Part shown: piece after piece, positions 6,771-13,389 of the stretch
Layout of the letters: every line of letters starts with the position of its first letter
Position numbering within the stretch: the stretch's first letter is position 1
Virus record (IMG/VR): IMGVR_UViG_2675903352_000015
Location: 1 to 14,377 of that record
Length of the DNA stretch: 14,377 bases
From: a virus
Lineage: Duplodnaviria; Heunggongvirae; Uroviricota; Caudoviricetes
Strand: one strand, 5' to 3'
Position numbers and translations under genes: made by a program
Notes under the pieces: model-generated
Told to the model about the DNA's origin: nothing
Seen by the model: only the letters and a program-made list of their open reading frames with translations
The model's database searches: none

Positions 6771-7196
6771 TCAATGCGCCACCACGGCATTTCCCGCCGG
6801 ACCACCACGATTCATCTGATTGAAACCAGCAATTACCACCGCGACAAGTTCATCAGCGTCTCTCACCAGTCGTTCATGCGTATCCACCAGTTCCCGAAAA
6901 TAATCGGAACTGTGGCTGCGCATCCAGGCCACCAGCGGAGGTGGCATTGCCTTTTCGATCGCTGGTAACAAAGCCTGAATTTTTTTAACCGCATCAGGGG
7001 TGTCTTTCTCCACCCAGCGGAAAATTTTCTGAGTATTGCGAGCCAGGGCTTCCGGATGGCTGTCGTCATACAGTTCCGGGAATGTCATACCCAGCTCAAA
7101 ATAAGCCCGGGTTATTTCAGCTGCCGGAACTTTTTCACCGTCCGGACGCGCCCAGGCATTCATCGCCATGCGGATGTGTTCATGCTTGATTTTCAT
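6771..7196 (-). CDS. YdaT-like protein (Rac prophage family; role assignment from context)
   Basis: 141 aa; overlaps the end of the upstream Cro-like gene by 17 bp; SD GGGGA upstream; position and size match Rac ydaT. Confidence 0.5.
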   Translation of the reverse strand: MKIKHEHIRMAMNAWARPDGEKVPAAEITRAYFELGMTFPELYDDSHPEALARNTQKIFRWVEKDTPDAVKKIQALLPAIEKAMPPPLVAWMRSHSSDYFRELVDTHERLVRDADELVAVVIAGFNQMNRGGPAGNAVVAH

Positions 7197-7452
7197 GAAT
7201 CATCCCCGGTGTATTTGGTGTGTTAACTTTACATCCAACAGGTAAACCGTCGGTTGGGTTAGGATAAATATCAGGGCGAATTTCATGCGGGGTAACTTCC
7301 CACTTCATTAGCTGGCATAACGGAATTACCTGCTTTGGGGGAACACCAAAGCTAAACCATTGCCAAACAGTCTGTTGAGCAACTCCCATATAACGACCTA
7401 TTTCAGCTTGAGTGTGTTTCTGCCTAATTTTTTCGCGAGTGCTATCTAGCAT
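7180..7452 (-). CDS. Cro/YdaS-like HTH transcriptional regulator
   Basis: 90 aa; strong SD (GAGGAGGG) before ATG 7452; HTH segment TQAEIGRYMGVAQQTVWQW; divergent from the repressor gene across an operator-bearing intergenic region. Confidence 0.65.
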   Translation of the reverse strand: MLDSTREKIRQKHTQAEIGRYMGVAQQTVWQWFSFGVPPKQVIPLCQLMKWEVTPHEIRPDIYPNPTDGLPVGCKVNTPNTPGMIHENQA

Positions 7453-7481
7453 TTTGCCCTCCTCTAAAAAACTATAAGCAA

Positions 7482-7523
7482 ATCCTACAATAAAAAACTG
7501 TATGCGATCAACAGTTTTTTATT
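7482..7523 (-). promoter_or_regulatory. pR-like promoter with operator palindrome O1 (AAAAACTGT-N9-ACAGTTTTT)
   Basis: Perfect 13-bp inverted repeat AATAAAAAACTGT (7489..7501) / ACAGTTTTTTATT (7511..7523); on the minus strand TTGATC (-35, 7511..7506), 18-bp spacer, TAGGAT (-10, 7487..7482) upstream of the Cro-like gene. Confidence 0.5.
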
Positions 7524-7561
7524 GTGATGCTTTTAACAGTATTTGCCTGTAAAATTGGAAA

Positions 7562-7963
7562 ATGATGAACGCCCTAGAAGTATCTATGTACAGAATCAGC
7601 AAGCTTCTTCAGGAAACTGGATGGAGCCAGGCTGAGCTTGCCCGTAGAATTGGTGTGACACAGCAAACTGTTCAACAATGGGTCAGCGGTAAGGCAACAC
7701 CTAAAGCCTCAAGTTTGGATAAACTGGTTGAGGTTACAGGGCATCCATTGCATTGGTTTTTATTGCCTCCTGAAGAGAGGGAGCAAATTTTCACCCCTGA
7801 TACGATGAAAATTGGTCCTCGCCAACGCGAACTGCTCCAAGCTTTTAGTGCGTTTCCTGAGGAAGACCAGGAAAAAATGCTTCAAGAAATCAAAGACAAG
7901 AAAAAATCAATGGAAGAAACCATTGCCCGATGGTTAGCGGCACAAAAAAGCCGCCTGGCGTGA
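7562..7963 (+). CDS. CI/RacR-like prophage repressor (XRE-family HTH, no S24 peptidase domain)
   Basis: 133 aa; HTH SQAELARRIGVTQQTVQQWVSGKATP; sits between the two operator-bearing divergent promoters in the same arrangement as lambda cI; no C-terminal Ser/Lys autocleavage motif recognised. Confidence 0.7.
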   Translation: MMNALEVSMYRISKLLQETGWSQAELARRIGVTQQTVQQWVSGKATPKASSLDKLVEVTGHPLHWFLLPPEEREQIFTPDTMKIGPRQRELLQAFSAFPEEDQEKMLQEIKDKKKSMEETIARWLAAQKSRLA

Positions 7964-7990
7964 CCACTGAACAAGAAGAGGAGTTATGCC

Positions 7991-8068
7991 ATGAGTACAG
8001 CCCTTTCTCCGATAGTTTCAGAATTCGAAACAACCGAACAAGAAGACAGTTATAACTTCAAGCATTGA
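7991..8068 (+). CDS. possible small ORF (25 aa, acidic) downstream of the repressor
   Basis: ATG 7991 preceded by GAGGAG with a 7-nt spacer; MSTALSPIVSEFETTEQEDSYNFKH; lies between the repressor stop and the terminator. Could be non-coding. Confidence 0.25.
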   Translation: MSTALSPIVSEFETTEQEDSYNFKH

Positions 8069-8133
8069 AATTGCAAATATTGTGCATGCCCGACGACAAT
8101 TTACCTTCTCTATCTAAGCAGAACAATTTTCAT

Positions 8134-8159
8134 ACTCCCTCATTCGAGGGAGTTTTTTT
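8134..8159 (+). terminator. rho-independent terminator ending the repressor transcript
   Basis: 8-bp stem ACTCCCTC / GAGGGAGT with ATTC loop followed by TTTTTT (8154..8159); U-run present only for the plus-strand transcript. Confidence 0.65.
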
Positions 8160-8173
8160 GCCTAAACCAACAA

Positions 8174-8213
8174 TTAAAAACTGTTGACACAAAACAGTTT
8201 TTAATTGTAGATT
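8174..8213 (+). promoter_or_regulatory. pL-like promoter with operator palindrome O2
   Basis: TTGACA (8184..8189), 18-bp spacer, TAGATT (8208..8213); perfect 12-bp inverted repeat TTAAAAACTGTT (8174..8185) / AACAGTTTTTAA (8193..8204) overlapping the -35; same CTGT-N9-ACAG core as O1. Confidence 0.55.
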
Positions 8214-8224
8214 ATTTTCACCAA

Positions 8225-8237
8225 CCCCCCCCCCCCC
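8225..8237. repeat. homopolymeric C13 tract
   Basis: Thirteen consecutive C at 8225..8237, starting about 12 bp downstream of the pL-like -10 hexamer, in the transcript start/5' leader region. Confidence 0.9.
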
Positions 8238-8389
8238 ACAGAACGCCGGGCAATACTTCGAGTTACCCGGCAGTGGTCAGGGGTTAAGTAGCCAGCCCGA
8301 GGCGTAAGAACATGACGGCAGGGTTCAACTTTAACTATGCAGCAGGTTTTTGTTCCGCTACCCCGGCGTTAAGGGGAAATGAGGTCAAC

Positions 8390-8545
8390 ATGGATACTAT
8401 CGATCTTGGCAACAACGAATCTCTGGTGTGCGGCGTGTTCCCAAACCAGGACGGCACATTCACCGCGATGACGTATACCAAAAGCAAAATGTTTAAAACC
8501 GAAAATGGTGCCCGTCGCTGGCTGGAAAGAAACTCAGGTGAGTGA
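8390..8545 (+). CDS. small prophage protein (51 aa; resembles Rac/Qin YdaF/YdfA-type proteins from memory)
   Basis: ATG 8390 with GAGG 5 nt upstream; an in-frame upstream ATG at 8312 (GAGG 9 nt upstream) would give 77 aa, so the start is ambiguous. Confidence 0.5.
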   Translation: MDTIDLGNNESLVCGVFPNQDGTFTAMTYTKSKMFKTENGARRWLERNSGE

Positions 8546-10590: not shown

Positions 10591-13071
10591 ATGAGTAAAG
10601 TCTTTATTTGCGCCGCCATTCCGGACGAACAGGCAACAGCAGAAGGCGCCAAACCTGTGGCCACTGCCATTGAAGCAGGCGACGAACGCCGGGCAAGAGC
10701 CAAATTTAGCTGGTTATTTCTGGAACAATACCCGGAAGCTCAGGACTGTGCTTATAAATTTCTTGTCTGCGAGGATAAACCCGGCATGGCCCGCCCTGCT
10801 CTCGATTCCTGGGATTCCGAATATATGCAGGAAAACCGCTGGAATGAGGAGTCGGCTTCCTTTGTTCCGGTCGACCCTGAACCGGACGCAGAAATTGTTA
10901 ACTTTAATCAGTTATCTGACGACAAGCGGGCTGCTGTCCTTGTCAGGTTCGGTACACATGAAAACATCACCGTGGATATGGTCATCAATGCAAGCGGGCT
11001 TCTCGGCGATGACGAGATGACGACTTTTGATGGACACCTCGCTGAAGCAATTATCCGGACCAGAGAAATTAACGCCATGTATCCAGAGCGTCAGATTGAG
11101 TACATCAACGATGCCAGACGTGATTTAAAACCAACAGCCAAATGGCCCGACGTTCAGGCGTATTTTCTCGAACGTAAAAAACGCATGGAAAAGGAGCGCA
11201 AAGAAGGTGGCGCATATAATTCCGTCGTCGATCTTGCCCGCGCCAGAGTCAACCGGCAAGGCACTGAAAACTCTGCAGGAAAAACTGACTCCGTAACTGC
11301 TGTCATTCGTCGCGAATACAGGCAGACATGGAAAACACTGGATGAAGAACTGGCCTACGCTTTCTGGCCTGGTGATATTGATGCCGGAAACATTGACGGC
11401 AGCATCCATCGCTGGGCAAAAAATGAAGTTATCGACAAAGATCGCGAAGACTGGAAGCGTATTTCCGCATCAATGCGCAAACAACCTGATGCCGTTCGCT
11501 ACGACCGTCAGACTATTTTTGGCCTTGTCCGTGAGCGTCCGATCGACATTCACAAAGATCCCGTGGCGCTGAACAAATACATCACTGAATACCTGGCGAC
11601 AAAGGGCGTGTTTGAGGATGAAGAAACAGACCAGAGCACTGCTGATATTCTCCAGCCGTCAGCAGCACAAACTGATGCAGTGGAAACTGAAGTATCTGAT
11701 ACCCAAAAAAATGAAAGCGCGCTGGAAACTGAACCATCTGTAGAGCGTGAGGGGCCGTTCTACTTCCTCTTCACCGATAAGGATGGCGAAAAATATGGTC
11801 GTGCAAACAAACTTTCTGGTCTGAATAAGGCGCTGGCTGCAGGGGCTACTGAAATCACGAAAGAAGAATATTTTGCCCGTAAAAACGGCACGTACTCAGG
11901 TTCACAACAAAATACTGGTGCATCTGACACGACCGCACAACCAGAGCCGGTAAAAGTTACCGCTGACGAAGTAAACAAAATTATGCAGGCAGCCAATATC
12001 AGCCAGCCTGACGCCGATAAGTTGCTTGCTGCCTCTCGCGGAGAATTTGTTGCAGGGATTAGCGACCCGAATGATCCGAAATGGGTGAAGGGGATTGAAA
12101 CCCGCGATTCTGTAAACCAGAACCAGCAAGAATCGGAACAGAACGACCAGAAAGCGGAACAAAACAGTCAAAATGCGTTACAAAACGAGCCAGAAACGAA
12201 ACAACCTGAGGCAGTAGCGCAACAGGAACCGGAAAAAGTCTGCACCGCCTGCGGTCAGAGCGGTGGCGGCAACTGCCCTGATTGTGGCGCGGTGATGGGC
12301 GACGCAACATACCAGGAAACATTCGATGAAGAGAATCAGGTTGAAGTTCAGGAAAATGATCCGGAGGAAATGGAAGGCGCTGAACATCCACACAAGGAGA
12401 ATGCTGGCAGCGCTCAGGACCACGCCAGCGATAATGAAACTGGTGAGACGGCAGATCCCTTAATTGTGGTGAACGGTCATCACGTTATCACATCCACCAG
12501 CAGAGTGTGGTACCACCTGATGATCGACCTTGAAACAATGGGAACCAACACCAATGCGCCCATCGTGGTTATTGGTGCGGTTTTCTTCGACCCACAAACA
12601 GGGGAAATCGGGCCAGTATTTTATATCGTTATCAGTCTGACTGACGCAATGAATACAGGGGCTGCTCCTGACGGTGGAACCATCAAATGGTGGCTGAAGC
12701 AGTCCAGTGAAGCCAGAGCTGCCATTTTAACAGACCAGGTAAAACTGAAGGATGCCCTTTCGCGGTTTCGGGAGTTCATCAACGAATACTCAGATGAAAA
12801 ATTCGTTCAGGTATGGGGTAATGGTGCAACTTTCGATAACGCAATTTTGCGCACCTCATACGAACGTCTGGACATCCCCTGCCCGTGGCGCTACCACAAC
12901 GATCGCGATGTACGCACAATCGTTGAGCTGGGAAAAACAATCGACTTTGATGCTAGAACCGTTATTCCATTCGAAGGCGTTCGCCACAATGCACTGGATG
13001 ACGCCCGTCACCAGGCAAAATACGTTTCAGCAATCTGGCAAAAACTGATCCCGAATCCGGTTGATTTTTAA
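10591..13071 (+). CDS. RecE-like prophage exonuclease: RecE-type N-terminal/central region and Cys4 zinc ribbon fused to a DnaQ-like DEDDh 3'-5' exonuclease domain
   Basis: 826 aa; GAGGT 8 nt upstream. Segment DKLLAASRGEFVAGISDPNDPKWVKGI...CTACGQSGGGNCPDCGAVMGDATYQETFDEE closely matches Rac RecE as I recall it. C-terminus has DEDDh motifs: MIDLETMG (D646, E648), WGNGATFDNAIL (D749), HNALDDARH (H799, D803/D804). Confidence 0.8.
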   Translation: MSKVFICAAIPDEQATAEGAKPVATAIEAGDERRARAKFSWLFLEQYPEAQDCAYKFLVCEDKPGMARPALDSWDSEYMQENRWNEESASFVPVDPEPDAEIVNFNQLSDDKRAAVLVRFGTHENITVDMVINASGLLGDDEMTTFDGHLAEAIIRTREINAMYPERQIEYINDARRDLKPTAKWPDVQAYFLERKKRMEKERKEGGAYNSVVDLARARVNRQGTENSAGKTDSVTAVIRREYRQTWKTLDEELAYAFWPGDIDAGNIDGSIHRWAKNEVIDKDREDWKRISASMRKQPDAVRYDRQTIFGLVRERPIDIHKDPVALNKYITEYLATKGVFEDEETDQSTADILQPSAAQTDAVETEVSDTQKNESALETEPSVEREGPFYFLFTDKDGEKYGRANKLSGLNKALAAGATEITKEEYFARKNGTYSGSQQNTGASDTTAQPEPVKVTADEVNKIMQAANISQPDADKLLAASRGEFVAGISDPNDPKWVKGIETRDSVNQNQQESEQNDQKAEQNSQNALQNEPETKQPEAVAQQEPEKVCTACGQSGGGNCPDCGAVMGDATYQETFDEENQVEVQENDPEEMEGAEHPHKENAGSAQDHASDNETGETADPLIVVNGHHVITSTSRVWYHLMIDLETMGTNTNAPIVVIGAVFFDPQTGEIGPVFYIVISLTDAMNTGAAPDGGTIKWWLKQSSEARAAILTDQVKLKDALSRFREFINEYSDEKFVQVWGNGATFDNAILRTSYERLDIPCPWRYHNDRDVRTIVELGKTIDFDARTVIPFEGVRHNALDDARHQAKYVSAIWQKLIPNPVDF

Positions 13072-13137: not shown

Positions 13138-13389
13138 ATGTACGAATTAACTCTATCGCCAGCAGAGATTCAAGAGATCACGAAATACGAGCGATACACA
13201 AAACAGCAACACCAGTTAAGGCTGCACGGTATCCCATTTGTAATCGGTCCTAAAAACGAACCAATAGTTCTTCGCAGGGATATTCCACACGGACTGACTA
13301 CGATGCCAAAAGCACCTGAACTAGTTTCCGCTGAACCCGATTTTGAGGCGCTGAACAATGGGAAGACCAAGAAAAAACAAAAAAGATAA
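13138..13389 (+). CDS. xis: excisionase (lambda Xis-like)
   Basis: 83 aa; N-terminus MYELTL and lysine-rich C-terminus NNGKTKKKQKR resemble lambda Xis (MYLTL...NGKKAKS) from memory; overlaps the integrase start by 32 bp as in lambda. Confidence 0.55.
   Translation: MYELTLSPAEIQEITKYERYTKQQHQLRLHGIPFVIGPKNEPIVLRRDIPHGLTTMPKAPELVSAEPDFEALNNGKTKKKQKR

Follow-up and report, generated by a model that had tools for sequence, protein, structure and literature searches.

The window analysed here is a 14,377-nt stretch of viral DNA that carries replication genes, an immunity region, a gene for a RecE-like exonuclease of 826 aa (10591-13071) and an integrase-like ORF starting at 13358. When the whole window was compared with complete E. 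coli genomes by megablast, the best coverage reached 73% (CAU16175, 98.7% identity) and the others ranged from 56 to 66%. This low coverage points to a mosaic segment of a lambdoid prophage that has no exact match in any complete E. coli genome. The features of the immunity region are collected in Table 1. At the head of the operon considered below stands the gene of a CI-like repressor, which, apart from HTH_3, matches Phage_CI_repr more weakly and in an overlapping position (E 8.9e-6, 26.4 bits) among 17 HTH-family matches. A sequence search of the PDB with this repressor returned generic HTH matches only (434 repressor, which was the best, and HipB) and no PaaR2 entry. The functional assignments of the ydaS- and ydaT-like genes are taken from PMC8630535, in which PaaR2, YdaS and YdaT of the CP-933P immunity region (paaR2-paaA2-parE2) are presented as the analogues of CI, Cro and CII.

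Table 1. Features of the immunity region and of the gene remnants that lie within it
Feature	Position	Strand	Evidence or remark
ydaT-like gene (CII analogue)	6771-7196	-	Pfam YdaT_toxin, E 2.4e-9
ydaS-like gene (Cro analogue), divergent from the repressor	7180-7452	-	Pfam YdaS_toxin, E 7e-10
OR-like palindrome, 15-nt arms, between the repressor and the ydaS/cro-like gene	7487-7525	.	Same motif as in the OL element
CI-like / PaaR-like HTH repressor, 133 aa, first gene of the operon	7562-7963	+	Pfam HTH_3, E 2e-13
Shine-Dalgarno sequence GAGGAG	7978-7983	+	Inherited from the antitoxin gene
Antitoxin stump, PaaA-type codons 1-22	7991-8056	+	tblastn, 21/22 identity to the 63-aa antitoxin of UPEC 26-1
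Deletion junction	8053-8057	.	Alignments to L002 and L003; 352 bp missing relative to intact loci
Frameshifted ORF tail, FKH and stop	8057-8068	+	parE sequence read in the wrong frame
parE remnant, last 19 codons and stop, without start codon	8058-8117	+	tblastn; SSIEIANIVHARRQFTFSI followed by the stop
Intrinsic terminator of the repressor (formerly repressor-TA) operon	8134-8160	+	Scan for hairpin and T7
OL/PL-like element	8170-8213	+	Palindrome with 16-nt arms overlapping a promoter, TTGACA-18-TAGATT

Two near-identical palindromes, 683 bp apart, flank the repressor operon. The one at 7487-7525 has arms ACAATAAAAAACTGT and a 9-nt spacer, and the one at 8170-8208 is perfect, with arms ACAATTAAAAACTGTT around a 7-nt spacer. 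Together they look like an OR/OL operator pair whose specificity would be unlike that of PaaR2. By analogy with PL933P (PMC8630535), the PL-like promoter is predicted to drive the early-left operon on the ydfA side. Just 3' of the -10 of this promoter, an uninterrupted C13 homopolymer (8225-8237) takes the place of an interrupted C-rich tract (CCCACCCCGCCCCAC) present in three relatives and of an 18-nt gap in CAU16175; it may be prone to slippage where the early-left transcript begins, or mark a weak spot of the assembly. The leader of ~150 nt that follows (8238-8389) and extends from the PL-like promoter to ydfA (DUF1391) hardly varies across five loci and is matched in 4,163 of the 5,426 E. 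coli genomes, often without annotation. No Rfam match was obtained for this leader, and its single-sequence fold was no better than those of shuffled sequences (z = +0.9). As to ydfA itself, ORF 8312-8545 gives a product of 77 aa when read from ATG 8312, and the start chosen by PGAP in relatives corresponds to ATG 8390 (51 aa). Of the 77-aa form, only residues 28-75 belong to the DUF1391 (ydfA/ydaF) Pfam domain, and the 51-aa gene is probably the real one.

Between the repressor stop codon (TGA, 7961-7963) and the terminator lies ORF 7991-8068, which the initial annotation had proposed as a possible gene for an acidic 25-aa peptide co-transcribed with the repressor, in the position that lambda uses for rexAB. 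The signals invoked for this proposal were all recovered. The GAGGAG motif stands 7 nt (TTATGCC) ahead of the ATG at 7991, the repressor stop precedes the ORF and the terminator follows it, and the product, MSTALSPIVSEFETTEQEDSYNFKH, counts 5 acidic residues against 1 basic. The terminator hairpin, ACTCCCTC-ATTC-GAGGGAGT, has an 8-bp stem with 5 GC pairs, a 4-nt loop and a T7 tract, and is kept in five of five loci. In the lambda layout, cI-rexA-rexB-tL-PL, accessory genes share a transcript with the prophage repressor and are expressed in lysogens. The comparison with lambda holds as regards position, the ORF being placed between a CI-like repressor and its terminator with a PL-like operator/promoter just 3', in a slot where relatives carry cargo, and the transcriptional logic is shared. 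However, there is no sequence relationship with rexAB, and the cargo of the relatives is an addiction-type toxin-antitoxin (TA) module, of which the window appears to hold a non-functional remnant.

A pattern scan for GAGGAG-N5-9-ATG found the motif twice in the 14.4 kb of the window, where 0.43 occurrences would be expected by chance; the second is the start of the divergent ydaS/cro-like gene. The segment GAGGAGTTATGCCATG is found identical before the intact antitoxin gene in two related loci (L002 and L003). A chance ORF can be ruled out, given that the RBS and the frame are homologous to those of a real antitoxin gene, from which, as judged by this homology, both are inherited. Across the same region, the other frames and strands offered only short ORFs of 20-47 aa with TTG starts, which are unsupported. 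A small RNA or a structured element in 7964-8165 was likewise ruled out, as a search of the whole window at the Rfam gathering thresholds yielded 0 matches, DicF included, a permissive Rfam search of 7950-8420 gave sub-threshold noise only, and the RNA fold of 7964-8165 was no better than shuffles (z = -0.88), the terminator hairpin excepted. The region also contains a 17-nt direct repeat (7963-7979, ACCACTGAACAAGAAGA, and 8030-8046, ACAACCGAACAAGAAGA; 88% identical), with one copy just 5' of the RBS and the other within the first 22 codons of the ORF; intact loci have it too, and it is probably due to chance.

The nature of the ORF becomes apparent in comparison with its relatives. In a megablast search of 5,426 complete E. 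coli genomes with positions 7400-8400 as query, 508 genomes covered most of the query and the best match was CAU16175 (97.9% identity). In L002, from an O157:H7 genome, the match is split by ~350 extra bases, which contain the genes of a 'RelB family antitoxin' (63 aa) and a 'RelE/ParE family toxin' (95 aa). At the exact position of the ORF, an antitoxin gene of 192 nt and a toxin gene of 288 nt are found in three loci whose flanks are collinear with those of the window. The flanks of related E. coli prophages are ~95-97% identical to the window (against L003, 479/495 positions in the left flank and 326/344 in the right one), and the repressor is identical at 130-131 of its 133 residues to those preceding intact paaA-parE in L002, L003 and L004. 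The intact 63-aa antitoxin matches Pfam PF21217 (PaaA2 / stability determinant) with an E of 1e-21 and the solved PaaA2 structures (3zbe, 5cw7 and 5cze) with an E of 1.4e-20, and the intact 95-aa toxin matches PF05016 (ParE) over residues 4-91 (E 4e-16).

These proteins belong to a known type of operon. The paaR-paaA-parE loci were described by Hallez et al. (2010), as cited in PMC4803016, as three-component TA operons of E. coli O157:H7 prophages. In CP-933P, paaA2-parE2 is co-transcribed with the repressor, and a PL-like promoter adjoins it (PMC8630535). The ancestral locus of the window would have had the same gene order (the gene of a CI-like HTH regulator first, then those of a small antitoxin that lacks a DNA-binding domain and of ParE) and the same location, across from ydaS and ydaT in the immunity region of a lambdoid prophage and followed by an OL/PL-like element. 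This layout is still recognisable, with the upstream HTH gene, the divergent ydaS-ydaT pair and the OR-like and OL-like repeats all in place. In contrast, only 22 of the 63 antitoxin codons and 19 of the 95 toxin codons are kept in the window, and they are in different frames.

The alignments to intact loci account for the whole of the ORF. Its antitoxin codons are read in frame 2, those of the parE remnant in frame 3. By tblastn, residues 74-95 of the UPEC 26-1 ParE, WP_000936799, match the window, with residues 77-95 on the parE side of the junction, and the same search found no further PaaA- or ParE-like sequence in the whole window. Relative to the intact loci, antitoxin codons 23-63, toxin codons 1-75 and two bases of toxin codon 76 are absent. 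The 352 missing bp are not a multiple of three, and for this reason the antitoxin frame enters the parE remnant out of frame, where it reads FKH and then stops. The junction sequence is CAGTTAYAACTTCAAGCATTGA. In the window the microhomology reads TAAC; CAU16175 and the parental alleles have CAAC, which in L003, the closest intact allele, stands at both endpoints of the deletion. Microhomologies of 4 nt are typical of slippage or illegitimate recombination. What had been annotated as a possible gene for a 25-aa peptide consists, then, of codons 1-22 of a 63-codon antitoxin gene joined to the out-of-frame 3' end of parE. The suggestion that the stretch may simply be non-coding comes nearer the truth than a peptide gene.

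The frequency of the junction was surveyed with a 60-mer centred on it. This probe matches end to end in one of the 5,426 complete E. coli genomes, CAU16175, and in 62 others the match is limited to its right half (100% identity) and falls within RelE/ParE toxin genes that are annotated and intact, whose 3' end is 100% identical to window positions 8054-8086. This identity indicates that the parental allele survives intact. The deleted segment, that is, the intact module, was found in 588 of the same 5,426 genomes. The exact junction pattern had no match in a collection of species-representative genomes or in metagenome contigs, and a phage collection matched the ydfA leader side of the query only, neither the repressor nor the stump. 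In CAU16175, the first 66 bases of the ORF are already annotated by PGAP as 'antitoxin, incomplete, missing C-terminus', a pseudogene with the locus tag GTP13_RS09825. Stump and junction are as in the window except for one synonymous base, and the annotation covers the 66 antitoxin-derived bases only, with no mention of the parE remnant. The window and CAU16175 are the two scar-bearing sequences known, and a comparison of two sequences with one synonymous difference is too small to measure selection on the stump. Both have the substitution N19D; PaaA2 and all three of the distinct intact alleles compared have N at this residue.

The alignments show that both remnants are homologous to the module genes, that the flanks are collinear and that the frame shifts at the junction. 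ORF 7991-8068 is thus almost certainly a deletion scar, that is, a pseudogene remnant of a paaA-parE module, and not a peptide gene. The ancestor would have been a lambdoid prophage of the Rac/Qin/CP-933 kind, with an operon made up of a CI-like repressor of the PaaR type, a 63-aa PaaA-type antitoxin and a 95-aa ParE, ending at the same terminator. A single deletion of 352 bp between two CAAC tetranucleotides, presumably caused by illegitimate recombination or replication slippage, would have brought the RBS, the start and 22 codons of the antitoxin gene up against the final 20 codons of the toxin gene (19 and the stop), which lie in a different frame. Translation across the fusion would add three codons (FKH) beyond the junction before stopping. 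The stump would still be transcribed with the repressor in lysogens, from the repressor promoter to the terminator, and may still be translated, as the ancestral RBS is intact. Its product would keep only ~10 of the ~50 residues that wrap ParE. An antitoxin function is not expected of it, because nearly all of the toxin-wrapping region is lost and no toxin is left to neutralise. The anatomy accordingly predicts neither addiction nor neutralisation activity for the locus. The repressor, the terminator and the OL/PL element are untouched, so that the control of immunity should be unaffected. The stump is an ordinary object of an already known kind, whose partial antitoxin PGAP already recognises.

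The initial annotation raised the possibility of a peptide gene with an exclusion function. As a functional micropeptide gene, the ORF would give an acidic 25-aa product, made together with the repressor in lysogens, that serves exclusion or, as a leftover or decoy antitoxin, counters ParE paralogues of other prophages. This reading is very unlikely. The strong RBS and the place inside the repressor operon are intact, and the peptide does resemble PaaA2, matching it in the PDB over residues 3-22 (17/20 identical; phmmer, E 3.7e-5), the stretch that is best conserved in the pairwise match of the antitoxin to PaaA2. However, the boundaries of the ORF were set by a frameshifting deletion, and the exact ORF recurs in a single genome of the 5,426 against 588 with the intact module, so that the peptide gene fails for want of conservation of its 25-codon frame across homologous elements. 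The peptide has no Pfam match. PF21217, which corresponds to the toxin-binding domain, spans residues 16-48 of the intact antitoxin, and the homology of the stump ends at residue 22, so that 7 of the 33 positions are retained, one of the residues kept being altered by N19D. No intact cognate parE adjoins the stump, the remnant having no start codon and lying in another frame, and no full-length ParE fold (~90-100 aa) is encoded in the window. PaaA2 itself is devoid of a DNA-binding domain and wraps ParE2 as a helix-helix-strand (PMC8251345). In PDB 5czf the PaaA2 chain begins at about residue 12-13. Moreover, PaaA1 and PaaA2 fail to cross-neutralise even at full length (PMC4803016), which makes protection against paralogous toxins improbable. 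The product, a truncated antitoxin, is also unlikely to be a phage-exclusion factor. Of the idea that exclusion-type cargo resides beside the repressor, what stands is that the slot holds co-transcribed accessory cargo in relatives; its content is a TA module, destroyed here.

What speaks against a plain pseudogene is that residues 3-22 are the best conserved against PaaA2, so that the N-terminus may play a separate part in the intact antitoxin, one that the stump could in principle keep. Another reading grants the stump a translated product with residual activity favouring its retention. Clp proteases degrade PaaA antitoxins, and the conserved motif ALSPxVSEFETxEQ could act by titrating Clp or by weakly modulating co-resident ParE paralogues, which we regard as highly improbable.

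That the deletion is an artefact of assembly or sequencing in the source of the window is less probable still. Nothing specific speaks for it beyond the nearby C13 homopolymer, a tract of an error-prone type, and CAU16175, an independent complete genome that differs from the window by the SNP inside the stump and by changes nearby, has the very same junction. Finally, an ancestral empty site, into which the TA module was inserted later in the relatives, agrees with the suggestion of Jurenas et al. (PMC8630535) that paaA2-parE2 was once inserted into an immunity region, but its likelihood is next to nil, as in-frame parts of both genes are present in the window (the antitoxin RBS with codons 1-22, and the last 19 toxin codons with the stop), coding sequence on both sides of the site cannot come from an insertion, intact parE alleles match the 3' piece at 100% and the target-site duplication repeats of a mobile TA cassette are not present. 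The opposite polarity of the event, an insertion, is ruled out by the presence of both gene ends.

The deletion scar sits in an immunity region whose type, to judge from its sequence, is not that of PaaR2, since both the operator motif and the N-terminus of the repressor differ from those reported for PaaR2: the palindrome arm reads ACAAT(A/T)AAAAACTGT in the window against the GTTTAGTAA consensus reported for CP-933P, and the repressor begins with MMNALE instead of the MQKKE of PaaR2. It is probably nearer to the type of the CP-933M paralogue. The closest intact O157:H7 copy, L002, is located next to an 'ECs1072 family' gene at 1.17 Mb and is probably this CP-933M paralogue. As described in PMC4803016 and PMC8630535, CP-933M carries a paralogue of the paaR2-paaA2-parE2 operon of CP-933P.

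On its own, the reassignment is of little importance, as it strikes a candidate micropeptide gene off the list and places it among the pseudogenes of a known family. It also illustrates that a 'perfect' RBS before a tiny ORF can be the legacy of a decapitated gene. For the family, the scar documents a natural loss in which one microhomology-mediated deletion took most of the toxin and antitoxin genes and spared the repressor, the terminator and the OL/PL element. Jurenas et al. (PMC8630535) proposed that paaA-parE acts as an addiction module that guards the immunity region of cryptic prophages from rearrangement or loss. The rarity of the scar is compatible with this stabilisation hypothesis (PMC8630535), without being proof of it, and its presence in one genome against 588 with the intact module provides a rough measure of how seldom such losses survive.
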